Sequence record: OR885871
Reading direction: 5' to 3' (one strand)
Length of the DNA stretch: 64,000 nt
Origin: Escherichia phage vB_EcoM_JN03
The notes under the pieces are model-generated. The model made no database searches and was not told where the DNA came from. It was given only the letters and a program-made list of their open reading frames with translations. Shown in pieces: positions 3,544 through 62,531 of this stretch (its first letter is position 1; each line of letters opens with the position of its first letter). The translations under genes were made by a program, and so were the position numbers.

Positions 3544-3572
3544 ATACTCCATAATATTGGGGGAAATTAGTG

Positions 3573-5072
3573 ATGTCTGAGATCCAAATAGTCAAAGTGA
3601 ACGAAGTTAGAATGCGGATCCTTGCCGAGGATTATATCCGTGAAGAACTCAACGATTACTTCAAATTTGAAGATCCTAATTTCCAACCGAATCCGTTCAG
3701 TAAATGGGACGGCGTAGTGCGGTTGTTCACAAAGAGTTCTGGGCTTATCGACATCGGCCTGTTATTTGAGGTGTTCAAATTCTGTAAGATGAACGGTTAC
3801 ACCATCAAATTAGATCCGGCCTTAAAATATATTCAAGATATTCCGGATGAAGAAATTCATGCGTTCATCGATACATTGAATGCGGTGTACCGAGACGAAA
3901 ACAAACAATATCAAAAAGCGATTGTCCGCGATTATCAATTTGATTCTGTTGCCACAGCAATACGCCAAAGCAGATGTGTCCTCGAAGCTGCCACGAGTGC
4001 TGGCAAATCCTTTATTTTGTACATCATGGCGCGTTACTACAGGCAACGCAGAGATGCCCTCGAAAGTAATCTGAGGACGTTAATCGTTGTACCATCCATT
4101 CATTTGGTGACTCAGTTGTATGACAACTTCGAAGAATATAGCCACGGGACAGAATGGAAACCATTGATGAATGTCCAGACAATATACGAAGGGGCAACGA
4201 AAGAGATTTTCAAACCCATAGTTATTTCAACTTGGCAAGGTATCCAGAACCAACCCAAAGAGTGGTTCCATCAATTTGGAGATATCGTCGTCGACGAAGT
4301 ACATACATCAAAATCAGATAAATTGTCTTACATCTTGAATAACTGTATTAACGCTGATCAACGTTTGGGAGTAACCGGAACCCTGGCGAATACAAAGGTC
4401 GCAGGGTTACAAGTCGTTGCTCACTTTGGCGCATATCATAAAATTATTACAGCGCGCGATTTAATCGATCTAGGATTTGCGGCGGACATCAATGTTAATA
4501 TGATTGAAGTCATACATCCTATGGCAGACTGTATTGAAATGCACGGTGCTGAGTATCAAAAGGAAATAGAATTCCTCATTGCTAACGAACGCCGCAATGA
4601 ATTGATAGCTCGAATGGCTCTATCTTTGAAAGGGAACGTCGCAGTAATGTTCGAACGTATCGATGCACACATGATGTTGGTTTATGAAATGCTATCGGCA
4701 GTCAAGAAAAACGTATTCGTCATCAACGGGGAAGTCAAGACAGAAGTTCGTAAACAGATTCAGGCTGCTATGGAAGAAGGGGAAGATATAACACTGTTAG
4801 CATCATATGGCACTATGCAACAGGGCGTATCTATCAAAAAACTCCATCATCTGATTTTGGCCCATCCCAGCAAATCTTATATCCGTGTTATACAGACATT
4901 GGGGCGTTTGATGCGTCAGCATTCCTCTAAGGATGTTGCGCGAATCTGGGACCTGGTAGACAACCTGCGCTACAACGGTTCTTACAACCATGCTCTCAGG
5001 CATTCTCATGAGAGATATAAATTTTATCTTATGGAGCGCCACCCTGTTAAAATGAAAAAAGTGGCGCTCTAA
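3573..5072 (+). CDS. uvsW: UvsW-like SF2 DNA helicase
   Basis: Walker A ATSAGKS, DEVH-type box VVDEVHT, C-terminal HPSKSYIRVIQTLGRLMR; blocks recalled from T4 UvsW (VISTWQGIQNQPKEW, ARIWDLVDN) are present. Confidence 0.85.
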   Translation: MSEIQIVKVNEVRMRILAEDYIREELNDYFKFEDPNFQPNPFSKWDGVVRLFTKSSGLIDIGLLFEVFKFCKMNGYTIKLDPALKYIQDIPDEEIHAFIDTLNAVYRDENKQYQKAIVRDYQFDSVATAIRQSRCVLEAATSAGKSFILYIMARYYRQRRDALESNLRTLIVVPSIHLVTQLYDNFEEYSHGTEWKPLMNVQTIYEGATKEIFKPIVISTWQGIQNQPKEWFHQFGDIVVDEVHTSKSDKLSYILNNCINADQRLGVTGTLANTKVAGLQVVAHFGAYHKIITARDLIDLGFAADINVNMIEVIHPMADCIEMHGAEYQKEIEFLIANERRNELIARMALSLKGNVAVMFERIDAHMMLVYEMLSAVKKNVFVINGEVKTEVRKQIQAAMEEGEDITLLASYGTMQQGVSIKKLHHLILAHPSKSYIRVIQTLGRLMRQHSSKDVARIWDLVDNLRYNGSYNHALRHSHERYKFYLMERHPVKMKKVAL

Positions 5073-5443: not shown

Positions 5444-5781
5444 ATGTATTTCTCGCGTGTTAGCAAACTTGGCTACATAATAATGTCATGCTCTGTTTAG
5501 ACCAAATAAAATATTTTACTTGTTGAATAAAAATCGCTTTCTTGTTGAACAATCCGTGCGTAATATACGAGTTGTGAGCTTTGCGAGCAACGAGTATTAT
5601 CACGAGCGAAGCGAGTAGACTGATAAAGAAAGGTTTTATTAAAACAGAATATTATAAATGCCGTCAGGCATTTATTTATCGCGCGTAGGGCAATTTATCA
5701 CTTGTTCTATAACTACAAACACGCGATACTAATTTGCGTCAAATATGACTTGAACCCCACTATATTTTGAGGATACAACTA

Positions 5782-6450
5782 ATGCAAGAGATCACTCTCT
5801 CCGAACGCACTTTACAACTGCTGGCTAACTTTGAAACCATCTGCCCCTCTATCGTTCTGGCACCTGGTAAAAAGTTGCGCACTGTTAACGATTCCAGTAC
5901 AGTTATCGCTATTGCCGACATTGACGAAGACTTCCCGTTCGAATTCCCGATTCTGGATCTGACCAAATTGCTGGCAATCCAGCGTCTGCCGAGTTTTAAA
6001 GGCGGTAAAATTGAAATGTCGGAAGACCACATTTTGCTGAAAGGTGAAAACTCCCAACTGCAATTCTGGCGTTCCGCTAAAGAACTGACTGTCGTTCCAG
6101 CAGACAGCATCGATCTTCCGTCTGTAGAATTTGAAGCAACAGTCACTCCTGAAAAAATGAAAGAGCTGACTCGCGCCTGTTCTACTCTGGGCCACAAAAC
6201 TGTACGCCTGGTGGCCAGCGGCGGTAAAACTCGTCTGGTGGGCACGACCACTACTATCGACAATTCCAACGATTACACTGTTGAGTTGGGTGAAACAACT
6301 CTGGGTGATTTTGCTATGCCTGTTGATGTGGTCAACCTGAAAATGATCGAAGGCAACTACGTGATCCGCGCCTGTGCCGAAATGCAACTGGTTAACTTCC
6401 AATCCGCAGACGGCACCATCAACTATTACGTCGGCATGCAGCTGGATTAA
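5782..6450 (+). CDS. 45: DNA polymerase sliding clamp (gp45-like)
   Basis: About 222 aa, GAGGA RBS, highly biased codon usage; loose similarity to T4 gp45 and immediately upstream of clamp-loader genes. Confidence 0.75.
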   Translation: MQEITLSERTLQLLANFETICPSIVLAPGKKLRTVNDSSTVIAIADIDEDFPFEFPILDLTKLLAIQRLPSFKGGKIEMSEDHILLKGENSQLQFWRSAKELTVVPADSIDLPSVEFEATVTPEKMKELTRACSTLGHKTVRLVASGGKTRLVGTTTTIDNSNDYTVELGETTLGDFAMPVDVVNLKMIEGNYVIRACAEMQLVNFQSADGTINYYVGMQLD

Positions 6451-6528: not shown

Positions 6529-7518
6529 ATGTCTAACATCACTATCGTCACAGATCAATACGCGTGGGAAAACAAATATCGTCCTGACAATCTGGATGAG
6601 ATCGTCCTCCCTTCAGACGTCCGTGCAAAAATCCATGGCTATGTTACATCAGGCAATGGAAACATCCCCTCAATGCTGTTCTATTCCCCTCAGCCTGGCA
6701 CGGGCAAGACTACTTCTGCTCTGGCTGTGTGCAACGAAATCGGTTGTATCAAACCGTTGATGATCAATGCGTCACTGGATAACAGCATTGATGTCATCCG
6801 TGACCGTGTTATTCAATACGCAACTGGCGTCAGTGTTTTCGGTGGCCGCAAAGTCGTTATCCTCGATGAAGTTGAGCGACTTTCCATGGCGGCGCAGGAA
6901 TCCCTGAAAGGCATCGTAGAGAAAGTCTCCAAAAACTGCTCCTTCATCCTGACGACTAATGCGAAACAGCGCGTTAACGAACCTCTGCGTTCCCGCTGTC
7001 GTGAAATTGATTTTATCTGGTCCGAAAAGGAAGCAGATGAAGTTAAACTCCAATTCATGCGTCGTTGCGCAACTATCCTGACAGAGGAAGGTATTCCGTA
7101 TGAAGCTGGTGTAATTGCTTCCATTGTGAAAGCATATTTCCCAGATAATCGCAAAATTATGGGAACTCTTCAGGATAATGCCACCACGTTTGGTAAAATC
7201 GATGAACGCGCTCTGGCACAGGTTAAAGCAGGGGAATTCCAAGCGCTGGTTGATTTCCTGAAAACCAATGATTGGGCTGGGATGAAGCAGTGGGTGACCG
7301 ACAACCAAAACTACATCACTGAAGATTTTTATTCCCGTTTCTTCCATTTCTGCGTTCCCCAGAACAAGGAAAAGACTCCTTTGATTCAAAAAGAGTCAAT
7401 CCCTGATCTGGTATGTGTCTGTGGTCAGTCTCAGATTGAACATCGTTCCGTCGGCGACGTCTGGTTACACGGCGTTTACTTCTTGACTAACGTCATGCTC
7501 AACATCAAATGGAAGTAA
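6529..7518 (+). CDS. 44: clamp loader large subunit (gp44-like AAA+ ATPase)
   Basis: Walker A PQPGTGKTT, Walker B ILDEVE, SRC-like arginine motif; AAAGAGG RBS. Confidence 0.9.
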   Translation: MSNITIVTDQYAWENKYRPDNLDEIVLPSDVRAKIHGYVTSGNGNIPSMLFYSPQPGTGKTTSALAVCNEIGCIKPLMINASLDNSIDVIRDRVIQYATGVSVFGGRKVVILDEVERLSMAAQESLKGIVEKVSKNCSFILTTNAKQRVNEPLRSRCREIDFIWSEKEADEVKLQFMRRCATILTEEGIPYEAGVIASIVKAYFPDNRKIMGTLQDNATTFGKIDERALAQVKAGEFQALVDFLKTNDWAGMKQWVTDNQNYITEDFYSRFFHFCVPQNKEKTPLIQKESIPDLVCVCGQSQIEHRSVGDVWLHGVYFLTNVMLNIKWK

Positions 7519-7522
7519 TATT

Positions 7523-7945
7523 ATGGCCGCTCCGTCACTGTTCGATTACCTCGGTGCGTTGAATAGCACCAAAGAGAATCTGTTGATGACCGAAGACCCC
7601 GAAATCAGAAAGGCATTTGATCCTTTCATGACTCGGCGCGGCCTTGCTCAGAGTAAAGACACGCTTGTGGTTGCTGAACAAATGAACCGCTTCCATGCCA
7701 TTACTCCTTGGATGCAATGGAACCTGGCGTTTCATAGCATTCCGGCAAAACGTCGCTATGACAAGTGGTCTAAGAAGGGAGCTATGGATCCTGATGTAAA
7801 ATTGATTTCTGAGTATTATTACATCAGTCCTGAAAAGGCTTCAGAATATGTTCGATTCCTGCCGAAAGAAGTCCTGGCTGAAATCAAGGCGAAGGTCGAA
7901 CGTTCCAACAGCAACGAAAAAGCCAAACCGCGCAAGGCTAAGTAA
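7523..7945 (+). CDS. 62: clamp loader small subunit (gp62-like)
   Basis: Follows gp44 with a 4-nt gap; IPAKRRYDKWSKK resembles the T4 gp62 segment as recalled. Confidence 0.65.
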   Translation: MAAPSLFDYLGALNSTKENLLMTEDPEIRKAFDPFMTRRGLAQSKDTLVVAEQMNRFHAITPWMQWNLAFHSIPAKRRYDKWSKKGAMDPDVKLISEYYYISPEKASEYVRFLPKEVLAEIKAKVERSNSNEKAKPRKAK

Positions 7946-7974: not shown

Positions 7975-8439
7975 ATGGCGCGTAATACGCTGGACATCTT
8001 AAAACTTTCAGCTGTCAACGATGAGGCCAGCATTGTTGACTGTATGGTTGAAGTTCAATTGAACCAAGACAAACCAGGGATTTTCCTGGGTATCAAGGAA
8101 ACGCTGAGTCGGATAGGGGTTAACACTCGTCAAGAGCCTAACACCTTGTATCAAACGTGCCATATTCTGCATAAATTTGGCAGATATCACATCGTGCATT
8201 TCAAGCATTTGTTCATGCTAGATGGGCACTACAACGGCTTTACGCGTGAAGATGTCCTGCGTATGAATCGGATTATACGGCTTCTGGAGCAATGGAATAT
8301 GGTTAAGATCTTGCATCCGGAACAAATAACCGAAGTGGCTGACATGTCTCGGATCAAAGTTGTAAAACATGACCAAGTTTCTGAGTGGAAATTGGTTCCA
8401 AAATACACCATTCGCCCAAGTCGGGCAAAAAGCGAATAA
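7975..8439 (+). CDS. regA: translational repressor RegA
   Basis: ETLSRIGV...LYQTCHILHKFGRYHIVHFKHLFMLDGH...WKLVPKYTI matches the T4 RegA pattern; conserved position after gp62. Confidence 0.8.
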   Translation: MARNTLDILKLSAVNDEASIVDCMVEVQLNQDKPGIFLGIKETLSRIGVNTRQEPNTLYQTCHILHKFGRYHIVHFKHLFMLDGHYNGFTREDVLRMNRIIRLLEQWNMVKILHPEQITEVADMSRIKVVKHDQVSEWKLVPKYTIRPSRAKSE

Positions 8440-8455
8440 CTGGAGTCGCTATATT

Positions 8456-9319
8456 ATGACAACTACATTTAATAAAAACGTGAGATTGAATTTGGCTTTT
8501 GGTAATGCGGCTGGAGATATTACAGCCCCTGACTTCGGTAAAATTCGCAATCAGGCCAAACTGGTTCTGGAAGAGACCCGCGAATTACTGGAAGCGGCTT
8601 ATTTCGATCATGACATCAAACTTGAGCTGGTGGCAACTCCAAAAGAAGACACCGATGATGTTGATATGGATAAAATCCTGAAAGCCATCATGGACGCTCA
8701 GGGTGATATCACAACTGTTAATGACGGCGTGGCCCATATCGCTGGGTTTAATGGTGATGAATGTTTACAACGCGTGTTTGCCTCTAACATGAGCAAATTT
8801 ATTCGCTCAGAAGATGAAGTCGGTCCGGCACTGGAATATTATTATTCACGCGGTTTCCCAGATGGCCAGTTACGCGTTGAAGGTGAATTCCCTCAGGCAT
8901 GCATCAAAGTGAATGAGACTGTGATGTGGAATGGCAAAGAATATCCGAAAGGAAAATTCCTGAAAAACATGGCTGTGTTCAAAGAGCCTGATTTCTCTGA
9001 TATGCTGACGAATACCCCTTCCCGTCAGATCAATGACATCGTTGCCAGCATGGCAATTGAAGAAGGTCAGGTATTTATTGATGATCTGAACGGCGTGGCG
9101 TTGGTATCTCCAAAAACGTTGGAAGTAATTCTTTCTATGGCAGTTGAAAAATCTTCTCGACCCGTAGATGTTAACGGCCAAATTGAAAGTTATGTGCCAG
9201 CGTATATCATTAACGATACCAATATGCCTAAGCTGTGTGGGGTGTGGGGTGCTAATGTTCGTGTATACGCGTGCGCACCTGTTCAAAACACTGTGACACA
9301 CCTCTCTCGCTTCGATTAA
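8456..9319 (+). CDS. MazG-like all-alpha NTP pyrophosphohydrolase domain protein (N-terminal) with unknown C-terminal domain
   Basis: N-terminal AKLVLEETRELLEAAYFDHD and NMSKFIRSE resemble MazG/HisE EExxE/D motifs; 287 aa. Confidence 0.35.
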   Translation: MTTTFNKNVRLNLAFGNAAGDITAPDFGKIRNQAKLVLEETRELLEAAYFDHDIKLELVATPKEDTDDVDMDKILKAIMDAQGDITTVNDGVAHIAGFNGDECLQRVFASNMSKFIRSEDEVGPALEYYYSRGFPDGQLRVEGEFPQACIKVNETVMWNGKEYPKGKFLKNMAVFKEPDFSDMLTNTPSRQINDIVASMAIEEGQVFIDDLNGVALVSPKTLEVILSMAVEKSSRPVDVNGQIESYVPAYIINDTNMPKLCGVWGANVRVYACAPVQNTVTHLSRFD

Positions 9320-9342
9320 TATAATCCGTTATTCACTAAACA

Positions 9343-9369
9343 ACAGAGGCTATAATGGCCTCTGTTTTT
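9343..9369 (+). terminator. rho-independent terminator
   Basis: ACAGAGGC-tataatg-GCCTCTGT hairpin followed by TTTTTG. Confidence 0.6.
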
Positions 9370-9388
9370 GTATTCTAGAGAGGATACC

Positions 9389-10612
9389 ATGAAAGATAAA
9401 CCATATGACATCCCATATTGCGGTGTCCGTGAAACCAAAATCAAATCAGCCCATCCTATGTTAAGTTCATTCCACCGCCAGCTGGCATATGAATGGATGA
9501 GGGATCGTTATGCGATACATGTCAAGAAGGACGTGCAATGCCTTCCAGCGCCATGGACGGATAATCCGGTATTACGCCAAGTCAAGTTTTGTAACGTGCG
9601 GAGAGAGCACGATAGGCAGTCTCGAAATTTGATCAATAATATCATCCTCGATCAGGATCTCACGCTATCTGACAAAATGTTCAACTGTGTATTGTTCCGC
9701 ATGTACAACATGTGGGAACCTATACAGGCTTTGGGTGGTCCATGGACGATCGAAGAATTCGGAAACATAAATCTTGAATGGTGTCGAGATGTTCTTCAGG
9801 AATTCGAATCTAAAGGTGGCAAAGTTTTCACCAATGCGTTTAATACAGGCGGTCTGAAACAATGCCTGGCTTTCCCTGAACTAGTTGTCAACCACAAGGA
9901 GCAACGCTTTGGCGGCATGAAAGTAAAAGTCCATCGGGTTGGCGGTGTTATAGATGAAATGGATTACAAGGTTGCCAAGAAGCTGGCCGAAGATAATCCT
10001 GGTGAATACAAAATAGAAGGCTGGGAACCATACATGCCGATGCGAGTCATCCGCTCTTTGAAGGCATTCGTCAACAAACACCCTCATTACTTTGATCGCC
10101 TCAGGGAATTTAGCCGTCCCGACTCTGTTTACCAGGCGATGTATGACGACATTGAGGGGCTTGGACCATTCTTGGCATACCAGATTTGGGTTGATTTTAC
10201 ATACATCGATGAATATCCATTCAGTGAAAACCACTTCACTATCGCTGGTCCAGGTTGCCGTGCTGGTATCGATCTGTTATTTTTGGACAAGGACGGCATG
10301 ACGCATGAAGAATGCATATTCTGGGTTCGTGATCATCAAGATCAATTGTTCGCTCAGTATGGGTATAAACGTAATGAATTTTGGTCGGCAGAAGAACCGG
10401 AAGATCGTTGCATGAATGTTATGCAGCTGGAGAACATGTTCTGTGAACTTCAGAAATATACCCGCTGCGTTGAGGCGGTGATGCGCGGGGAGAAACCTCG
10501 AGGAAAGGTGGGGTATGACGGGAATGGCAGTGCGTATAAGCAACGTTGTGATGAAGTCGTCCTCAAACGTGGTTCCGTGAATCTTTTAGAACGTTTGAAG
10601 AAACCTGAATAA
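9389..10612 (+). CDS. hypothetical enzyme-sized protein, 407 aa (candidate nucleotide/base-modification enzyme)
   Basis: ATG with GAGAGGA RBS; no P-loop; no family recognisable by eye; occupies the position where T4 has DNA polymerase. Confidence 0.55.
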   Translation: MKDKPYDIPYCGVRETKIKSAHPMLSSFHRQLAYEWMRDRYAIHVKKDVQCLPAPWTDNPVLRQVKFCNVRREHDRQSRNLINNIILDQDLTLSDKMFNCVLFRMYNMWEPIQALGGPWTIEEFGNINLEWCRDVLQEFESKGGKVFTNAFNTGGLKQCLAFPELVVNHKEQRFGGMKVKVHRVGGVIDEMDYKVAKKLAEDNPGEYKIEGWEPYMPMRVIRSLKAFVNKHPHYFDRLREFSRPDSVYQAMYDDIEGLGPFLAYQIWVDFTYIDEYPFSENHFTIAGPGCRAGIDLLFLDKDGMTHEECIFWVRDHQDQLFAQYGYKRNEFWSAEEPEDRCMNVMQLENMFCELQKYTRCVEAVMRGEKPRGKVGYDGNGSAYKQRCDEVVLKRGSVNLLERLKKPE

Positions 10613-10727
10613 AGATTCCCTTTACTTCATTCTTCAATAACTCTTTTCAACGTATTATTGACCTCACTTAAACGAAGCGCCCTGGCAAACGGGGCGCACA
10701 TTTGAACTGAAACAGGAAGACTATACC

Positions 10728-12746
10728 ATGGCAGAATTCAAACCCTTCGCAACGGCAGTTAATAACAACGTGCTGGCGATGTCCGCAACTGGTCTGTTCA
10801 TGACCAATATCGATAAAGATGCTCTTTGGGATCTGTATCTGGAATCTTTCCCTGCTGGTACCAACCCGCTCTACCGTGAGCGTACCGAGCACGACTGTAC
10901 CTGCTGTAAACAATTCATCCGTAACATCGGCGGTGTGGTCACCATCGACTCCGACCTGAACGTGATTTCCATCTGGGACAACATTGATCTGGGTAATGAA
11001 TATGACGTGGTGGCTGCGGCGCTGTCGGCGTATGTCAAACAACACGCAATCGTCGATGTTTATTTTAACGATTCTGCCAAAGTCGGCCTGTCTCACAATC
11101 ACGAATCTGGTGAAGATGGCAAAATCCGTACTTATAATCATTTCCATACCCAATTACTTGGTAGCTATGTTCTGCGTCCGGACGCAATCGCTTCGAAAAA
11201 AGGTGAAATCCGCCAGGCTATTGAATTGTTTGAACGCGGTCTGCGTGAAATTACTCTGGAATCAGCTGAAATCGTTCTGGAACTGATTGACCAGAATTCT
11301 CTGTATCGCGGCGCAGAACACAAAGCAGCAGTGAAGGGATTTGTTGAAACCAAAAAGGCATATGAACAAGTCCCCGAATCAGCCCGTTCTCTTTGGGCAT
11401 GGCATACTGGATACCGTTCAAACAATCATGTTCCACACGGCATCCGTAACACAGTTATCGGCACTCTGCTGACAGATATCAGCGAAGGCGTGGAACTGGA
11501 AAAGGCTGTTAAATCGTTTGAATCCAAAGTTGCTCCGGCGAACTACAAACGTCCGACAGCGCTGGTTTCAAAATCCATGATCGAAAACGCTCAGAAAGAA
11601 GTTATTGCTCTGGGTTTGGAAGACTCACTGGCGCGTCGTTATGCGGTTTATGATGATCTGACAATCAACAACGTTCTGTTCGCAGATCTGGCTGCTCAGA
11701 AAGCGATGGATCCGTTTGCACAGCTGGCCGCCGAAGTGAAAACTCCGACCAAGTCCCTGGAAAAAGTTGAAGAGATCAGCGTTGATGATTTCCTGAGCAA
11801 TGTTCTGCCAAAAGCGCATTCAATGGAAGTGCTTGTAGAGAATTCTCATACTAGCAACCTGATGTCCCTGGTTGCTCCGGCGAACCCAGATGCGCCTAAC
11901 TTGTTCAAGTGGAACAACGGTTTCTCCTGGTCTTACAATGGTGAAGTGGCCGATTCCATTAAAGAACGTGTAAAGGCTGCTGGCGGTAAAGTTGACGGGT
12001 ATCTGCGCGTTTCCTTGGCGTGGCACAATAACGACGACCTCGATCTGCATATGTTCAACAACATGGAGCACGTTTACTTCCGCGATCGCCGCTCTATGAC
12101 AGGTGCCCATCTGGATATCGATATGAACGGTATGGATGGTATTGATCCAAACCGCGCTCCGGTGGAAAATATCATCTTTACAGATGAAAGCAAGCTGCGC
12201 GATGGTGAATACCGTTTCGAAATCCACAACTACAATCAACGTGAAAAAATCGACGAAGGGTTTGAAGTAGAAGTAGAATACAAAGGCGCAACGCATCGTT
12301 TCAGCCATCCTGGCCTGAAAGATCAGGGGCGTATCACTGCAGTCATCCTGACTGTTAAAGACAAACAAGTTGTTGGCATTAAGTCCGAACTGGCTAATGT
12401 TGATAAGTCTAAAGAAGTTTGGGGTATCAAGACTGCGACCTTCCAGAAAGTACAGCTGGTCCTGAACTCACCAAACCATTGGGATGGCGAGCAGACAGGC
12501 AACAAGCACGTGTTCTTCATCCTGGAAGGTTGTGCTAATCCTGAAGGTACTCGTGGTTTCTACAACGAATATCTGAAGCCAGAACTGGATAAACATCGTA
12601 AGGTTTTTGAAATGTTGGGTAGTAAAATGAAAGTCCAGCCGAATGAAAACCAACTGTCCGGTCTGGGATTCTCGACGACGCAACGCAACCACGTGTTCGT
12701 CAAAGTGTCCGGCGCGTTTAACCGTACTGTAAAAGTCATTTTCTAA
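10728..12746 (+). CDS. large hypothetical protein, 672 aa, codon-optimised
   Basis: AGGAAG RBS; strongly host-optimal codons; Cys cluster HDCTCCKQF; acidic segments WHNNDDLDLH and HLDIDMNGMDGID; no Walker motifs. Confidence 0.7.
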   Translation: MAEFKPFATAVNNNVLAMSATGLFMTNIDKDALWDLYLESFPAGTNPLYRERTEHDCTCCKQFIRNIGGVVTIDSDLNVISIWDNIDLGNEYDVVAAALSAYVKQHAIVDVYFNDSAKVGLSHNHESGEDGKIRTYNHFHTQLLGSYVLRPDAIASKKGEIRQAIELFERGLREITLESAEIVLELIDQNSLYRGAEHKAAVKGFVETKKAYEQVPESARSLWAWHTGYRSNNHVPHGIRNTVIGTLLTDISEGVELEKAVKSFESKVAPANYKRPTALVSKSMIENAQKEVIALGLEDSLARRYAVYDDLTINNVLFADLAAQKAMDPFAQLAAEVKTPTKSLEKVEEISVDDFLSNVLPKAHSMEVLVENSHTSNLMSLVAPANPDAPNLFKWNNGFSWSYNGEVADSIKERVKAAGGKVDGYLRVSLAWHNNDDLDLHMFNNMEHVYFRDRRSMTGAHLDIDMNGMDGIDPNRAPVENIIFTDESKLRDGEYRFEIHNYNQREKIDEGFEVEVEYKGATHRFSHPGLKDQGRITAVILTVKDKQVVGIKSELANVDKSKEVWGIKTATFQKVQLVLNSPNHWDGEQTGNKHVFFILEGCANPEGTRGFYNEYLKPELDKHRKVFEMLGSKMKVQPNENQLSGLGFSTTQRNHVFVKVSGAFNRTVKVIF

Positions 12747-14902: not shown

Positions 14903-15097
14903 ATGTCCGTAAAAATGAAAATTGATATGACCAAACCATTTTTGCGTTCAGGAGTTGACTCTCTTGACTCACAGTTTAAACCCAGCGAAGTTTTAATCCA
15001 ACAGATTGAGACTAATCGCGAATTCATAGAACACATGCTGGTGAAGCCGGAAGGTGAAGCCGTCCATACCACTAAAGAAGGTAATAACGATGATTGA
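14903..15097 (+). CDS. small protein, 64 aa, translationally coupled to the vWA gene
   Basis: GAGGAA RBS; stop overlaps the vWA ATG by 8 nt. Confidence 0.45.
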   Translation: MSVKMKIDMTKPFLRSGVDSLDSQFKPSEVLIQQIETNREFIEHMLVKPEGEAVHTTKEGNNDD

Positions 15098-17306
15098 ATC
15101 ATTAACATTTAAGAATGCGGTTGCGACCGTCGCGCCGTCTAACCATGTAATCGTTGTGGATATCTCCGGTTCCATGTATCGTTCACTTCCAGAAGTCCGT
15201 AAGCATCTGAAGGAGAACCTGCCTTCCCTGGTGAAACCGGAAGATACTGTGAGCATCCTTTACTTTTCATCTCGCGGTGATTTCGGAACGGTATTTGCCG
15301 GACGTCAGATTAACAGTGCAACTGACCTCAGTGAGATCAATAATCTAATTGACCGTTTCCTGAAGCCTTCTGGTTGTACTGGTTTTGTTGAGCCGCTGAA
15401 ACTGGCTGCGGAAACTGCCATTAGCCTGAATAAACCTGGTTATGTTAACAACCTGGCATTCATGACCGACGGGTATGACAACTGCTGGCGTTCTAATGAA
15501 ATCCTGGATGCCGCTGAAGTACTGCCCAAAGCGTTTGATAACATTACCTTCATCGAATACGGTTGGTATTGTAATCGCGAACTGCTGGGGCTAATGGCAG
15601 AACGTTCTGGTGCGACCCACGTATTCGCCGAAGGACAGAATGAATATCAGACCGAATTGGAAAACGTGCTGAAAACTTCTTCACCGAAAGTTGTAGTCGA
15701 TGTTCCTCTGGTTTATACCCATGCCATTTATGTTGAAAATGGCGTGGCGACTGTTTTAGCTGTGCATCCTGATGAAGAGCACCCTATTGGCCACGTCAGC
15801 ATCCCTGAAAGCGTTTCTCAGCTGTGGGTTGTAAACCCCAACATGATCGACCAGCTGGATAATCTGGCAGACATCCAAGCGGCATACGTGCTGGCATTTT
15901 ACGGCGTGTATACCATGGACGCAGATTTGGTTTGGGCTGCGCTGAAGAAAACGGGAGATGTTCGTTTCATCAAACAATACAGCAACTGTTTCACCAAGCA
16001 GGACTATTCCAACATCAAAGTCGATCTGACCCAGGCTATCGTGGATGAAACTCTGCGCGGCGTAGATGGCATCGATTACAATATGGTTCCGGCTGAAGAC
16101 GCCACCACCATTGTTGATGTTCTGACGTATTTGGCTGAAGCAGATGTCTCTATCGTCACCAAGCATCCGCTATTCTCTTACAAGAGCATTGGGCGCGGTA
16201 CTATACAAAAAGTTGACGACACCGAAGACAAGTTGGCCGAAGAGATTGCGAATGCGACTTCTAAAGAAGAGCGTAAAGCCCTGGCGCTCAAACTGGCCGA
16301 GCACGAAGATTGGACGCCGGAATTCAATCCAGCAGATGATAAAGGGATTGTCCCGATCAGCAATTTGGTCTATAATTCAGAACGTCCTAACATCAGTGTG
16401 CAGACAGTTCAACACGGAACGGTTATTGTGCCTGAGTTTGTACAGAAGAAATATGAACTTCCTGAAGAGCTGGGAACCTGGCGTTATCGCAATTACACCA
16501 TTGTCAAGGATGGTATCATCAACCTGAAAACAATGCCTATCACTGCAGATTCTCCGATTGTTCGGGCTAAGGTGGCACAGGATTTGACTGCCATGGGTGT
16601 TCATGTGTTTGGTGGGCCGGAAGTCTTCATTGTAAATCTGGAAAGTGTCCCAATGGTTAACCGCGCCATGACAAAGAATATCAGTGCTGCTGAATTCTTT
16701 GCAGACAATGTGCGCCGTGAAGCATTGAAGGCAAAGCAAAAAGTTCTGAAATTCTACCGTGATGAACTGGTTGGCAAAGGCAACGCTACTGGTCTGGCTT
16801 CAAAATATGGCAAAGAAGCGGCTGATTTCCTGTCAGCAAACGGCATTCGCGACTATGGATTTTCACCGAAGACTTCTTCTGTAGAATCAACCGATGTCTA
16901 TATGAGTCGTGAATTGAATGTGAAAATCAAAGGCGCATCTTCACTGCCGAGCATCGCGTCTGTTATCAAAAAACAGACGGACGGTAAAAAACTGAATGTC
17001 GCTGATCAGCTGATCGCTAATGCCCTGGCCGAATACAATGCGTTTGTTAAATCGCCGATGATCACCAGCGTACCGGAAGAGACTCAGAAAAAGCTGATCG
17101 AAAGTTGGATTGGTGATGCAGCAAAAGCAGCTATCAACGAAGTTCGATCTCTGAACAAAACGCTGTCCAAGGTAGTTTATGGGATTGTTGCAGGCCATGG
17201 TTGGTTTACCGACCTGGATTTGGAAGAATCCACTATGGATGTGGAAGTTGATGGGGTGAAATACACTGTCACTGCCGAACTGGCTGAAAAAGAAGTCAAA
17301 ATCTAA
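15090..17306 (+). CDS. von Willebrand factor A (vWA) domain protein with MIDAS motif, 738 aa
   Basis: N-terminal VVVDISGSM (DxSxS MIDAS) followed by T and D motifs typical of vWA folds; long C-terminal region of unknown function; optimised codons. Confidence 0.75.
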   Translation: MIESLTFKNAVATVAPSNHVIVVDISGSMYRSLPEVRKHLKENLPSLVKPEDTVSILYFSSRGDFGTVFAGRQINSATDLSEINNLIDRFLKPSGCTGFVEPLKLAAETAISLNKPGYVNNLAFMTDGYDNCWRSNEILDAAEVLPKAFDNITFIEYGWYCNRELLGLMAERSGATHVFAEGQNEYQTELENVLKTSSPKVVVDVPLVYTHAIYVENGVATVLAVHPDEEHPIGHVSIPESVSQLWVVNPNMIDQLDNLADIQAAYVLAFYGVYTMDADLVWAALKKTGDVRFIKQYSNCFTKQDYSNIKVDLTQAIVDETLRGVDGIDYNMVPAEDATTIVDVLTYLAEADVSIVTKHPLFSYKSIGRGTIQKVDDTEDKLAEEIANATSKEERKALALKLAEHEDWTPEFNPADDKGIVPISNLVYNSERPNISVQTVQHGTVIVPEFVQKKYELPEELGTWRYRNYTIVKDGIINLKTMPITADSPIVRAKVAQDLTAMGVHVFGGPEVFIVNLESVPMVNRAMTKNISAAEFFADNVRREALKAKQKVLKFYRDELVGKGNATGLASKYGKEAADFLSANGIRDYGFSPKTSSVESTDVYMSRELNVKIKGASSLPSIASVIKKQTDGKKLNVADQLIANALAEYNAFVKSPMITSVPEETQKKLIESWIGDAAKAAINEVRSLNKTLSKVVYGIVAGHGWFTDLDLEESTMDVEVDGVKYTVTAELAEKEVKI

Positions 17307-58158: not shown

Positions 58159-59118
58159 ATGTCCTATATTCTTCATATCGAGTCCGGCCTGAAATTTGAA
58201 ATTGATGGTAAAACCGCTGCTGATCTTCAAGCAGAAATCAAAGGTGCAGACCTTATCATTGGCAATGTAACATTACGCCGTATGATGGAAGGCGTCCTCC
58301 AGTCAGCCAACGGCTTTGAACTCATTGAAGGTCTGAGCCAGGAAGAGAAAGAAGAAACTCTCGAAGCTCTTGACCGCGCTGAAGCCGAAAAAGTTAAACC
58401 GACCGAAGATGCGGGGGTTAAACAGGGCGACGGTGAATCAAATCCGGTGATTGACGCCGAAGAAACGGTTGGGCAACCTGTCGGTGATCAAAATTCCCAG
58501 ACCGTCGAAGACGGTTCTCTTGAAGTCAACAAAGACGGTTCCATTTCCCTGGTAGTTGAAGGCGAAGAAGTTCTTGACGAAGAAGCGCAAGCCCGTGCTG
58601 AAGAAGTTCGCCGTCGCATGCTGGGCACAACCGTTGCTGAAGCAATCGCCGACGTTGAAAATCCGAAGGATGATCAGGCTTTAGCGAACGCGAAGGCGGT
58701 TCTGGCCAAGAAATCTTCTGAAATGCGCCCTGCATCTTCTACCGAAGAACGCAAGCGTCGTCATAACAAGCGTGAAGAAATGGTTGAAGCGGCTCGCGCA
58801 TCCAATTATGGTCCTATCCTGGCTGCGGTTGAATCGGGGGTTGTGCCTGGGGTTTATTTGAGCTATGTGAATCCGGATATGCGCTGGTTCCAGTTCCCTG
58901 TTACCGAATTGGCAGATGAAGCCAATCCACACGCCCGCACCAATACTTATGTTGATCTGGCGCCGATCGTTTCCGGCGGCTGGGGGTTCAGTCTGTATGT
59001 GAATGGTAAATCATTCACCAAACGCCAGAAAATCAAAGAAACTGATGCCGAATCTCTGGTGAAAGCAATCAATGAATGGTTACCACAGGCGTTGGCCGAA
59101 GCGAAAGCTGCTGCGTAA
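58159..59118 (+). CDS. acidic hypothetical protein, 319 aa, codon-optimised
   Basis: Own early promoter and downstream terminator; central region very rich in Glu/Asp. Confidence 0.55.
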   Translation: MSYILHIESGLKFEIDGKTAADLQAEIKGADLIIGNVTLRRMMEGVLQSANGFELIEGLSQEEKEETLEALDRAEAEKVKPTEDAGVKQGDGESNPVIDAEETVGQPVGDQNSQTVEDGSLEVNKDGSISLVVEGEEVLDEEAQARAEEVRRRMLGTTVAEAIADVENPKDDQALANAKAVLAKKSSEMRPASSTEERKRRHNKREEMVEAARASNYGPILAAVESGVVPGVYLSYVNPDMRWFQFPVTELADEANPHARTNTYVDLAPIVSGGWGFSLYVNGKSFTKRQKIKETDAESLVKAINEWLPQALAEAKAAA

Positions 59119-59175: not shown

Positions 59176-59190
59176 TTATTGGAGCATGTC

Positions 59191-59853
59191 ATGTCTTATT
59201 CGCTCAAAGGGCTGTTGAAGCGCCCTGTGCATTTGTTTGTCAAACCACCTGCTGTAGAAGGGGAATATTCGGCACGAGGAGAGTTGTATTACATTAAAGG
59301 CTCCAATGGTAGTGGTAAGTCTACTGTGCCTTCTTATTTGGCGGAGAATGATCCTCAGGCGTATGTCGTAACCCATAACAGTAAGATCATGCTCACGGTT
59401 TGTCCATCTTACAATATTGTCTGTGTCGGTAAATATGACAAGTCTAAGTCCAAAGGGGTTGATTCTCTGAAGGATACTGAGCAGATGTTGTTCGCGTTGT
59501 CTATTGCTGACCAACCAGAATACCTGAAATATGATGTGATTTTTGAAGGCATCATTCCGTCTACATTATTGAGTTCTTGGATTCCCCGCCTGACACGCCC
59601 ACCACGTGAATTGGTCGTCCTCTTTATGGATACCCCTCTTGAAACCTGTATTGCCCGTGTTAAATCGCGTAACGGTGGCGCAGACTTCAATGAAAGTCTG
59701 GTGGTCGAGAAGTGGGAGAGAGTTCATGATCACCGTCAACGGCATAAAGGCTTGTTCCCTACCGTTCCCGCAGGTATGATGAAGTCCGATGGCCTGACTG
59801 TAGAGCAGGCTGTTTTTGCGTTTCTCAATCGTGATTTTGGGAGTATTGATTGA
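59191..59853 (+). CDS. P-loop kinase (candidate nucleotide or DNA-base kinase)
   Basis: Classical Walker A GSNGSGKST near the N-terminus; about 220 aa; first gene of the nucleotide-metabolism block. Confidence 0.6.
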   Translation: MSYSLKGLLKRPVHLFVKPPAVEGEYSARGELYYIKGSNGSGKSTVPSYLAENDPQAYVVTHNSKIMLTVCPSYNIVCVGKYDKSKSKGVDSLKDTEQMLFALSIADQPEYLKYDVIFEGIIPSTLLSSWIPRLTRPPRELVVLFMDTPLETCIARVKSRNGGADFNESLVVEKWERVHDHRQRHKGLFPTVPAGMMKSDGLTVEQAVFAFLNRDFGSID

Positions 59854-60893
59854 TGGAAATTTTTGCTCTAAATAATAATGACATGCTTAAGAAAGCTGTG
59901 TTGGCTATCCGTGAACACGGGATTGAGTCAGATCCTGGCAACGCAGAGATTAACACTGACGGCACTCGTTTTATTGATGGCGTGACGATTACGGTGGCTG
60001 ACCCTCGAGATCGTTGGTTATCTGTTGAAGGTCGTAATTCATCTGCGCTTGCTGCGATTGGTGAAACATTCTGGGTTCTGTCAGGCCGCAATGACATCCG
60101 TTTCCTTTCCCGAGTCCTCCCTCGTGCGGTCAACTTCTCGGATGATGGCGTAACGTGGCGTGGTGCTTACGGACCACGTCTGTACAACTATGGCCAGCTG
60201 GATAGTGTCATCAACCGTTTGCGCAATAACCCCAACACCCGTCAGGCGTATCTCACCATCTATGATCCAGCTCTGGACTCAGATGAAAGTTTGGCCGCGC
60301 ATAGTGAAACAGGAGAAGCCAAGACTAAAGACATGATCTGTAATCTGGCTTTATTGTTCAGTATAACAGAAGGGCGGTTGAACATCACGGTCATCAATCG
60401 AAGTCAGGATGTCCTCTGGGGTATGAGTTCAATCAACTTCATTGAATTCTCCATTTTGCAGGAAGTATTGGCGAAGGTGCTGAACGTGGAAGTCGGGAAT
60501 TATAAACTGTTCTCGAATAACCTTCACTATTATAACAACGAAGTCAGTCGGAAGCAACTCGGGAACATAACCAACAAGACCCGAACTTCTATTGGTATGT
60601 ACAATTCTTTGTTGGAATTCTCTTCGGAAAAGGTGAAATGTCAAGAAAACATCCAAAATCTGTTCCTCGGTGTACTTCATCGCTGTGACATTGGCAGTGA
60701 ATTTGGTAAAATCAGAGAGCATTTGAAGGAATATAACGCAGATACAGGTTTGATGATGGATATGTCATATTGTCTGTGGTGTCGCCTTAATGATACTAAA
60801 ATTGATAAACGTCGGATTGCTGATGATGGTCTTCGTAATGCGTTGTTGCAATCACCCGTTGACCGTAAACACATGTGGGGGTATGGGGAATGA
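59853..60893 (+). CDS. thymidylate-synthase-family pyrimidine hydroxymethylase (dUMP/dCMP hydroxymethylase-like)
   Basis: NPNTRQAYLTIYDP...C...RSQDVLWGM parallels T4 gp42 NPDSRRGIMIYTRP...C...RSNDVVFGF; an Asn lies near the base-specificity position (tentative). Confidence 0.7.
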   Translation: MEIFALNNNDMLKKAVLAIREHGIESDPGNAEINTDGTRFIDGVTITVADPRDRWLSVEGRNSSALAAIGETFWVLSGRNDIRFLSRVLPRAVNFSDDGVTWRGAYGPRLYNYGQLDSVINRLRNNPNTRQAYLTIYDPALDSDESLAAHSETGEAKTKDMICNLALLFSITEGRLNITVINRSQDVLWGMSSINFIEFSILQEVLAKVLNVEVGNYKLFSNNLHYYNNEVSRKQLGNITNKTRTSIGMYNSLLEFSSEKVKCQENIQNLFLGVLHRCDIGSEFGKIREHLKEYNADTGLMMDMSYCLWCRLNDTKIDKRRIADDGLRNALLQSPVDRKHMWGYGE

Positions 60894-61459
60894 AATACCC
60901 TAATCTAGAATTTTTTACGGGGCGCAAGCGCTCCGGCAAGGACTTCTGTTTGGAGTCCCTCATCAGCTTTCACCATTTACAGGGTGATATGGACATCCAG
61001 CGCTTATCTTTCTCAGACGAGTTGCGTCGGGTGGCTCATTACATCTATCCTTGGTTGCCAGAGGAAGTAGAGGACGACATCAAGGACTTGCCATATGTTC
61101 ACCCAGATAACCCCAAGGGATTAACCCCAAGGCAGATCTGGCTTCATCTCGGCAGCGATACGGGCTTGCGTTACGTACAACCAGACCTGTTTCTGTCATT
61201 CTTTAAACGATATCAACTTCCTTTGGTGGAACAGAACCCACACGTTCATTATATCGTGAGTGATTTGCGCACCCCTCAGGAATATGAATGGGCGCTGAGC
61301 ACTAAATGTCCCATCACCCGCATTTCAAAGGCGGATCGCGGTGGTATCATAGAGGATGACATTGAGGCTTTCATTGATAAGATGGAAGTTGATTATGAAT
61401 TTGTCAATCCGTTTGAAGGTTGGCAACCGTTCGTCAAATTTTATAGGGATCGGAAATGA
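60890..61459 (+). CDS. 1: deoxynucleoside monophosphate kinase (gp1-like)
   Basis: Unusual P-loop FFTGRKRSGKD matches T4 gp1 FLSGVKRSGKD; ATGA coupling to the hydroxymethylase. Confidence 0.7.
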   Translation: MKYPNLEFFTGRKRSGKDFCLESLISFHHLQGDMDIQRLSFSDELRRVAHYIYPWLPEEVEDDIKDLPYVHPDNPKGLTPRQIWLHLGSDTGLRYVQPDLFLSFFKRYQLPLVEQNPHVHYIVSDLRTPQEYEWALSTKCPITRISKADRGGIIEDDIEAFIDKMEVDYEFVNPFEGWQPFVKFYRDRK

Positions 61460-62001
61460 TCACAGCAGAGCATATTAAAAGTCTGCTCGAACTTCAAAAG
61501 GCCACCAACGTGGCCTATTTTGGGGAAGAGTGGAAGAAGCGCTGGACCGAAGTGGCGATAGCAAACTCCATCTATCGTGAGTGGGCAGAGTTTCTAGACG
61601 AAACAACCATAGACTGGAAGATCTATGGGGGTGGTAAGCATTGGCGACAAGTGGATGCCATATACGAGTTGGTGGACGTTGTTCACTTCATGCTCTGTGC
61701 TGTCCTGCAGGAGGAAGACAAACCACACGATATTCCAGAAATGGTGAGATTCGTTCAGGCGCAGCCAATTCAAACCCCTCACGACCTCAGGAAAGTGACT
61801 GAACTGTTCACGTATTTCATGTCACACCCTCTTCGGAATGTTTTGGCTACCTTCTTGGCAGCGGCTTGCGGATATTTGGGGCTGGATGCTGAGACCTACA
61901 TGCTGGCCCACAAGCGCAAGAACGATCGCAATCGTCTACGTGCTGCTGGCGGTGCGAACTATGATAAGTCCGCGGAAACCCCTTTGACTCTGGAGTTCTA
62001 A
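61456..62001 (+). CDS. all-alpha nucleotide pyrophosphatase candidate (gp56/dimeric-dUTPase-like)
   Basis: Position and size match T4 dCTPase; acidic helical segments (WAEFLDETTIDW...VDVVHFMLCAVLQEED); assignment tentative. Confidence 0.4.
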   Translation: MITAEHIKSLLELQKATNVAYFGEEWKKRWTEVAIANSIYREWAEFLDETTIDWKIYGGGKHWRQVDAIYELVDVVHFMLCAVLQEEDKPHDIPEMVRFVQAQPIQTPHDLRKVTELFTYFMSHPLRNVLATFLAAACGYLGLDAETYMLAHKRKNDRNRLRAAGGANYDKSAETPLTLEF

Positions 62002-62531
62002 TGTTTACAGTCGTCGTATCATATTACGCGGAACACGCCCCGCAAATGGCACAGAACTTTGCTGAGTTTATTAAACCTGGCAGACATGTCGTTATCGCGA
62101 CCAAATTCAACAAAGAACCAGATGGTGCGGCTACTGTAACGCAACATATTACAACACCAGAGCCGGAAACACTTTTTAAACGCATTGAAGATTTTGCTTT
62201 TGGCGGGGAAGAAATTCCAGAGTCATTACAGCATATCTATTTTGAAGATGCGATATATTATGTTCATGCTATTCCAAAGGATGTTACAACTGAACAAATG
62301 ATGTATATCCTGAATATCGCATTGAATGTTTCTTGTGTCAACAGGGCACAGCACAATCGTCTGCGTAATATGTATTTAACAGAACGCGGGGGTTCCGAAA
62401 TTAACGATGAAAAACTCCCGTCAATAATGGCGATTCATGAAGCAATCAATATATTGTCCAAGAAAGTCTTGGGCACCGATTTATTAATTACGATCAACAA
62501 GCAAGAGGAAACGAAATGGCCGATTCATTGA
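62001..62531 (+). CDS. hypothetical protein, 176 aa
   Basis: TAATG coupling to the upstream gene. Confidence 0.45.
   Translation: MFTVVVSYYAEHAPQMAQNFAEFIKPGRHVVIATKFNKEPDGAATVTQHITTPEPETLFKRIEDFAFGGEEIPESLQHIYFEDAIYYVHAIPKDVTTEQMMYILNIALNVSCVNRAQHNRLRNMYLTERGGSEINDEKLPSIMAIHEAINILSKKVLGTDLLITINKQEETKWPIH

Follow-up and report, generated by a model that had tools for sequence, protein, structure and literature searches.

Phages that hypermodify thymidine replace dTTP by 5-hydroxymethyl-dUTP (5-hmdUTP) through the action of a thymidylate synthase (TS)-like hydroxymethylase, a dNMP kinase, and an NTP pyrophosphatase, and the DNA carrying 5-hydroxymethyldeoxyuridine (5-hmdU) is then replicated (PMC8989533). 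In phage ViI, the 5-hydroxymethyl group is phosphorylated by two DNA kinases, gp67 and gp243; serine is then attached via its side-chain oxygen by the clade-2 protein gp247, and the pyridoxal phosphate enzyme gp226 decarboxylates the product, yielding 5-NeOmdU (PMC8989533). This nucleoside, 5-aminoethoxymethyl-dU, is found at ~40% of the T positions of ViI, the other ~60% being plain T (PMC5889632). The virion DNA of ViI-like phages contains a single non-canonical nucleoside (PMC5889632) and, as in the other phages of this kind, no 5-hmdU, all of which has been turned into the hypermodified base or into thymine (PMC8989533). In the literature that could be searched, no enzyme is assigned to the thymine-forming step and no reaction to the family known as clade 1. 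The subject of the present analysis is a member of that family, a protein of 407 amino acids (aa) encoded at 9389–10612 on the + strand of a 64,000-nucleotide stretch of Escherichia phage vB_EcoM_JN03 (record OR885871; hereafter the window), together with the MazG-like gene that lies between it and regA. The genome belongs to Kuttervirus (the ViI-like Salmonella phages, Ackermannviridae). By megablast, 264 phage records match positions 8300–10700, a segment that is 99.4% identical in phage STP55.

Family and orthology of the 407-aa protein

In a hidden Markov model (HMM) search, the 407-aa protein matches Pfam PF18723 with 280.7 bits (cut-off 25; E = 1.7e-83), along positions 5–278 of the 281 in the profile. 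The current Pfam name of PF18723 is "5-hmdU DNA kinase, helical domain" (HMUDK_hel). It is equated here with what was once known as alpha-glutamyl/putrescinyl thymine pyrophosphorylase (aGPT-Pplase) clade 1, because the BFVD entries of the family still bear the old name and because the adjacent PF18724, matched by gp247 ("aGPT-Pplase2" in 2021), is now named "Amino acid:DNA transferase" (ADDT). We presume that aGPT-Pplase clade 1 was also the earlier name of PF18723 within Pfam itself. The family is large, with 2357 representative clusters of the protein library at E ≤ 0.001, and many Kuttervirus records still label the gene of the 407-aa protein "hypothetical protein."

The 407-aa protein is 82% identical over its full length to ViI Vi01_130c (YP_004327501, noted as orf00160), which has the same neighbours, and the orthologue in phage SF02 is 100% identical to it. 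The gp numbers of Lee et al. track the orf numbers of ViI, gp67 being YP_004327432 (orf00067) and gp247 being YP_004327568 (orf00247). Hence, gp160 is the ViI orthologue of the 407-aa protein; the two belong to the same Pfam family, occupy the same place after regA and the MazG-like gene, and show no difference of substance. Under the name "aG/PT-PPlase1," gp160 was in 2018 one of the five recombinant lysates that sufficed for the formation of 5-NeOmdU on 5-hmdU DNA (PMC5889632). It was described in 2013 and 2018 (PMC5889632), and it was Iyer et al. in 2013, as cited in PMC8989533 and PMC5889632, who first predicted that its family was one of thymine-modifying group transferases.

Judged by its sequence, the 407-aa protein is already known, as the gp160 orthologue in a described thymidine-hypermodification pathway, and the initial annotation was mistaken in presenting it as an orphan without recognisable motifs. 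The same annotation had made it a candidate base-modifying transferase. This agrees with the first prediction for the family, but the proven transferase of the group is the paralogue gp247 (PF18724). That the 407-aa protein also acts as a transferase is unproven, because serine transfer is done by gp247 and because gp54 and gp51 of phage M6 suffice in the absence of the clade-1 protein gp55.

Fold, conserved residues, and relation to clade 2

The AlphaFold2 model of the 407-aa protein, for which 65 divergent homologues served as input, is confident (predicted local distance difference test [pLDDT] 91.6; predicted template modelling score 0.89) and disordered only at residues 380–407. It has a helix-hairpin-helix (HhH) fold like that of DNA glycosylases. 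Against the PDB alone, Foldseek finds nothing significant for this model, and neither do sequence and profile searches with the 407-aa and MazG-like proteins; gp247 too fails to find gp46 of phage PaMx11 by sequence. Against BFVD, Foldseek matches the model with SP10 gp186, the clade-1 protein of PhiW-14, and others, and more weakly with proteins having an ADDT domain (E = 5e-3). A further BFVD match is Q56ED1 (E = 5e-6; query-normalised TM 0.60), which is ORF233c of Aeromonas phage 31, an unnamed protein of 795 aa in a T4-like phage. This structural match to the model suggests that clade-1-like domains also occur in phages without known thymidine hypermodification.

Conservation was counted among 148 representatives that are pairwise at most 50% identical. 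The catalytic-looking residues, whose absence across homologues would have refuted the initial annotation, are conserved family-wide. This is the case for R40 (134/134), R72 (133/134), D75 (134/134), and D269 (140/141), and near the C-terminus for C352 (134/137), E353 (135/137), and K356 (134/137). Other near-invariant positions are R104, Q265, Y272, and the hairpin G287-P-G289. The signature formed by R72, D75, Q265, D269, the GPG hairpin, and C352-E353-x2-K356 is complete in the 407-aa protein, each element being found in at least 96% of the 148 representatives. The motif E-x3-C-E-x2-K-Y is common to M6 gp55, PaMx11 gp50, and SP10 gp186C, which are all members of PF18723. In the homologue alignment, residues ~165–212 of the 407-aa protein appear as a lineage-specific insertion of ~45 residues, assigned by DSSP on the model to two strands and a helix.

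Clade 2 (PF18724, with ViI gp247, M6 gp51, and PaMx11 gp46 [PDB 8Z2M/8Z2N]) acts in the same pathway and is found in the same genomes as clade 1. The two resemble each other in an HhH-like segment, GP[FW][LI]x[YF][QK], and apparently in a Glu-x3-Cys...Lys arrangement at a putatively equivalent C-terminal helix. Clade-2 enzymes depend on a Cys and a Glu close to it, and their reaction is proposed to pass through an exocyclic-methylene intermediate (PMC8989533); in gp46, the essential E243 and C247 sit in QEVETILCKWK, near the C-terminus. The E348-x3-C352 segment of the 407-aa protein resembles that of gp46, has the same relative position, and is the sole segment that hhalign pairs between the clades, although not significantly. 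On the other hand, clade 1 has a signature of its own (KFxNVRRExDR, FLAYQxxVDxTY, and the adjacent C-E), and the 407-aa protein has no match to PF18724 at E = 0.01. The kinase partners differ as well, since clade 1 pairs with HMUD1 kinases, whereas ADDT adjoins HMUD2 in Ackermannviridae-like loci. Transferase activity is proven for clade 2 only: gp247, gp51, and gp46 are the only proteins shown to attach an amino acid or amine to DNA with kinase-activated 5-hmdU (5-PmdU). The HhH-GPD DNA glycosylases (AlkA, Ogg, EndoIII, and MutY) and the queuine-salvage proteins DUF2419/QNG1 have 6–13% identity to the 407-aa protein, whose Cys-Glu motif is not a glycosylase feature.

Genomic company and possible reaction of clade 1

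The association of clade 1 with the HMUD1 kinase takes several forms. PF18723 is fused to the kinase domain PF18748 in P0120 (41% identity over 95% of the 407-aa query), in SP10 gp186, and in locus L041, the first and the last being metagenomic. These fusions have the same conserved motif as the 407-aa protein and lack its ~45-residue insertion. In M6, in PaMx11, and in loci L077 and L078, a kinase gene lies directly upstream of the clade-1 gene. In the window, by contrast with the fusions, the HMUD1-type 5-hmdU DNA kinase, which is the orthologue of ViI gp67, is encoded by a separate gene ~49 kb away (59179–59853, +; PF18748, E = 2.6e-113). Next to it is the gene of a TS-family protein (59850–60893, +; PF00303, E = 1.8e-15; ViI thyA/orf00066), presumed from the role given in PMC8989533 to be the dUMP hydroxymethylase. 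The co-occurrence with hydroxymethylase and kinase genes that the initial annotation had suggested looking for is thus found in the window (59179–60893), and it is also found in related loci. For example, L006 and L038–L040, whose clade-1 proteins are 45–48% identical to the 407-aa protein, have the order pol43-HMUD2-ADDT-clade 1...HMUD1-TS-like-dUTPase_2. Pelagiphages pair TS with clade 1 (PMC9599517). In the metagenomic locus L005 (10001–13244), a fusion of PF18723 with HMUD1 (609 aa) is followed by a 145-aa open reading frame (ORF) and then by a second, stand-alone PF18723 paralogue (339 aa), and there is no clade-2 transferase in 15 kb of this locus. The locus set, which was retrieved with a narrower alignment, over-represents closer relatives.

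Upstream of the HMUD1 kinase of the window lies a 319-aa ORF (58159–59118, +) without Pfam match. It has 24% identity (E = 7e-6) to a 275-aa ORF of L006 (11398–12225) that lies between the clade-1 and TS-like genes, and from this resemblance it may be another pathway-associated protein.

On the whole, the 407-aa protein is probably, if far from certainly, a clade-1 gp160 orthologue of the hypermodification pathway that is itself catalytic on kinase-activated 5-hmdU, with a neighbour of the MazG/HisE type. A catalytic, base-flipping enzyme is preferred because of the fold, because residues of polar or nucleophilic character are conserved across the family, and because the protein is closely linked with the kinase and the rest of the pathway. 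Such an enzyme would bind DNA via its HhH motif, flip out the phosphorylated base, and use C352/E353 (with E348, K356, D269, R72, and D75) for C6-thiolate chemistry of the same kind as in the clade-2 enzymes, working jointly with the HMUD1-type kinase. As for its reaction, a tentative and rather doubtful proposal is that, in phages that have a clade-2 transferase as well, clade 1 turns the 5-PmdU of replicated DNA into canonical thymidine. It would then be a "thymine synthase" acting on the polymer with the help of the conserved Cys/Glu and some reductant. Between them, this enzyme and the clade-2 transferase would decide, in a sequence-specific way, which T positions are modified and which are plain. 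This branch is favoured because the ViI-type phages have a proven transferase and one odd nucleoside, and the remaining 5-hmdU must become thymine.

A number of observations weigh against catalysis by clade 1, against thymine formation, or against both. Neither sequence nor profile comparison finds significant homology of clade 1 to clade 2 (BLASTP against gp247, E = 0.16; hhalign against a four-sequence clade-2 alignment, probability 0.33), so C352 is equated with C247 of gp46 by position and motif alone. No cofactor or reductant site for thymine formation was identified. Purified gp247 acting on kinase-treated DNA yields O-serinylthymidine, the precursor of 5-NeOmdU (PMC8989533), gp54 and gp51 of M6 are enough without gp55 (PMC8989533), and gp160 is not in the 2021 table of assigned functions (PMC8989533). 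In SP10 gp186, the kinase domain does not need the clade-1 domain for its activity, which speaks for independence and provides no positive clade-1 activity (PMC8989533). In some 30 small-phage loci of IMG/VR, within L042–L076 (contigs of ~5–170 kb, most <60 kb), a PF18723 gene is present but neither a kinase nor an ADDT nor a TS-like gene is detected within 10 kb of it, which is a weak negative because the HMMs of these three families were built from 2–5 sequences each. In L050, the PF18723 gene (10001–11008) has a TraI_2-like ORF on one side and a dCMP deaminase on the other, and a D5-type primase and PolA are nearby. Pfam now names PF18723 as the helical domain of a kinase. Finally, SP10, which seemingly has clade 1 only, makes glutamyl-thymine; SP10 and the stand-alone homologues agree better with a clade 1 that is itself a transferase than with one that makes only thymine.

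The recurrent fusion or adjacency with the HMUD1 kinase and the present Pfam name agree with another explanation, in which clade 1 is a non-catalytic partner of the 5-hmdU kinase, an HhH protein that binds DNA, flips or selects 5-hmdU according to its context, and presents it to gp67. No activity is reported for gp160 or M6 gp55, which are dispensable in vitro (PMC8989533), and a targeting factor is plausible because the kinases alone phosphorylate ~23% of 5-hmdU and modification is sequence-specific (PMC8989533). Nevertheless, a Cys-Glu-x2-Lys motif and Arg and Asp residues that are near-invariant in 148 divergent sequences would be odd for a binding module, and they mirror the essential Glu and Cys of the clade-2 enzyme. 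The SP10 kinase domain also works alone (PMC8989533), and many homologues have no kinase within 10 kb. A mere partner of the kinase is considered unlikely. It is improbable too that clade 1 is a second group transferase, placing another nucleophile, or serine in other contexts, onto 5-PmdU and giving a product that is minor, unstable, or identical to that of gp247. A transferase is what Iyer et al. originally predicted for the family (2013, cited in PMC8989533 and PMC5889632), and it would accommodate the alpha-glutamylthymine of SP10 (PMC5889632), whose only detected Pplase is the clade-1 domain, the two paralogues of L005 without ADDT in 15 kb, and the pairing with TS in pelagiphages (PMC9599517). 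It is at odds, however, with the single non-canonical nucleoside of ViI-like virion DNA (PMC5889632) and with the need for gp247 in lysate reconstitutions (PMC8989533), and no donor or product is known. The fold would also suit a true DNA glycosylase excising unprocessed 5-hmU, uracil, or another base in repair, quality control, or counter-defence. This is very improbable, as the family-specific Cys-Glu motif and the linkage to kinase, ADDT, and hydroxymethylase genes point to modification, and excision of bases would be destructive on a genome in which all T positions are initially 5-hmdU.

The MazG-like protein and gene order after regA

The gene that precedes that of the 407-aa protein (8456–9319, +) codes for a 287-aa protein that is the orthologue of ViI orf00161, with 86% identity to ViI Vi01_131c. 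It matches phrog_2144 (E = 1e-135) and phrog_671 (E = 2e-18), two PHROGs named MazG-like or nucleotide pyrophosphohydrolase. A conserved N-terminal domain (~residues 1–185) is followed by a variable, lineage-specific C-terminal extension of ~100 aa that is missing in L034, a locus from a contig matching Serratia phage phiMAM1 (190-aa protein), and in Pseudomonas phage Cygsa01 (175 aa). Homologues of the N-terminal domain are found in phiMAM1, in Cygsa01 (where the gene again comes after 45-44-62-regA), in N4-like Pectobacterium phages, and in the Samunavirus Pa BHU-17. The Pa BHU-17 homologue has 32% identity (tblastn E = 4e-18) and matches the Pfam families PRA-PH (31.6 bits, cut-off 21.3) and, at threshold, MazG (22 bits). 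Six homologues, the most distant of them with 36% identity, and 23 sequences from Ackermannviridae all retain the residues E40, E43, D80, and D84. The protein resembles MazG/HisE (PRA-PH) and phage dTTPases/dUTPases such as SH-Ab 15599 gp18 in having these invariant acidic residues (ExxE...DxxxD), and its gene is placed among replication genes; its second acidic spacing is DxxxD, as opposed to the canonical E/DxxD form. It differs from MazG/HisE by an added beta-rich region, by the C-terminal extension, and by the lack of a direct Pfam match. From these motifs and matches, the 287-aa protein is concluded, on indirect evidence, to be a probable all-alpha NTP pyrophosphohydrolase of the MazG/HisE type, which presumably edits the nucleotide pool.

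The initial annotation had recognised a MazG-like N-terminal domain, which is supported indirectly by the PHROG names, the matches of the Pa BHU-17 homologue, and the invariant acidic residues, but not by a direct family match: the 287-aa protein has no Pfam or NCBIfam match, and none to the MazG, MazG-like, or PRA-PH HMMs even at E = 10. This counts against the assignment, as does the poor AlphaFold2 model (pLDDT 46.9, from a shallow alignment of 23 sequences). A role in the pathway is further weakened by the distribution of the protein, which is missing around clade 1 in L005 and L006 and present in N4-like phages, Samunavirus, and others. The 287-aa protein is not specifically tied to hypermodification genes. 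A fixed partnership of the MazG-like gene with clade 1 was considered and ruled out on the grounds of this distribution and because the two genes lie apart in L037. The proposal that both genes have functions tied to nucleotide pools or DNA modification agrees with their families. The role of dTTPase/dUTPase more likely belongs to a dUTPase_2-family NTP pyrophosphatase (61456–62001, +; PF08761, E = 6e-9) than to the MazG-like protein, because that enzyme sits in the hydroxymethylase module and by analogy with gp18 of phage 15599 (PMC13458397). The TS...dUTPase_2 arrangement recurs in related loci. In the window, the module (59179–62531, +) also contains a 194-aa kinase-like ORF and the gene of a protein with a Phage ACT-like domain (PF24021, E = 2.5e-86), and then comes UvsX.

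Upstream of the two genes, all on the + strand, lie those of a gp45-like sliding clamp (5767–6450; Pfam gp45-slide_C, E = 8e-4; ViI Vi01_135c is annotated gp45), whose real start may be downstream of the listed TTG, of the gp44 clamp-loader large subunit (6529–7518; Pfam AAA, Gp44_lid, and DNA_pol3_delta2), of the gp62 clamp-loader small subunit (7523–7945; Phage_clamp_A, E = 1.2e-11), and of the RegA translational repressor (7975–8439; Translat_reg, E = 4e-35; phrog_242). The T4 record has 45-44-62-regA-43 on one strand, and the cluster of the window matches it in genes, order, and strand up to regA; there is no DNA polymerase gene directly 3′ of regA in the window. ORFs, Pfam, and the T4 record thus confirm the comparison made in the initial annotation, but not its interpretation as a "synteny break" caused by insertion. 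All of the 23 Ackermannviridae loci from IMG/VR have 62-regA-MazG-like-407aa in this order, and a MazG-like gene comes after regA outside the family too, in Cygsa01 and in L037. Because the order is fixed across the whole family, the regA junction is not a local insertion, and a recent arrival of both genes after regA is ruled out.

The position of the polymerase gene offers a different perspective. In ViI, it is at 145128–148124 of NC_015296, ~56 kb from the regA locus, and the HMUD2 kinase and ADDT that this genome additionally encodes are downstream of it, at 1.5 kb for the HMUD2-type 5-hmdU DNA kinase and at 3 kb for the amino acid:DNA transferase. Downstream of the T4 polymerase gene come imm.1 and imm, and after these the DNA-modification genes 42 and beta-gt. 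The order is HMUD2-ADDT-clade1-45-44-62-regA...MazG-like in L037 (7308–16326) and pol43-HMUD2-ADDT-clade1...HMUD1-TS in L038 and L040. Because the polymerase gene of several relatives precedes HMUD2-ADDT-clade 1, the gene orders hint that the Kuttervirus arrangement could have arisen by relocation of a pol-HMUD2-ADDT block, with the clade-1 gene left behind.

Ribosome-binding sites, which had been claimed to be strong, are present for the two genes as Shine-Dalgarno sequences, namely GGAG, ~10 nt 5′ of the ATG of the MazG-like gene, and GAGAGGA, 5 nt 5′ of the ATG of the 407-aa gene. Between the genes, a consensus scan and the sequence itself reveal a terminator-like hairpin (9342–9366, +) with an 11-bp stem and TATAAT in the loop, followed by a T-run. 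Its location suggests that they are perhaps not one simple transcription unit. Directly 3′ of the 407-aa gene is a 672-aa ORF (10728–12746, +) conserved in Ackermannviridae (56% identity in L034), which has no Pfam or NCBIfam match and whose matching PHROGs are of unknown function. Farther on, a 750-aa protein (15054–17306, +) starts with a von Willebrand factor A domain, after which comes a long stretch without assignment; it belongs to phrog_2426 (unknown function) and is conserved in L034. A UvsW-like helicase is encoded by one 500-aa ORF in the window (3570–5072) and by three short coding sequences in L001 (Salmonella phage 38, 4422–5775), the split probably reflecting frameshifts or sequencing errors in that record.

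In conclusion, the "hypothetical protein" of many Kuttervirus records is a member of a described hypermodification family, and what had been seen as a synteny break is the normal architecture of Ackermannviridae. The remaining interest lies in the reaction of clade 1, a widespread family strongly conserved at catalytic-looking positions. Assigning to an enzyme the step from 5-hmdU to thymine would complete the pathway by which these phages make restriction-resistant DNA.

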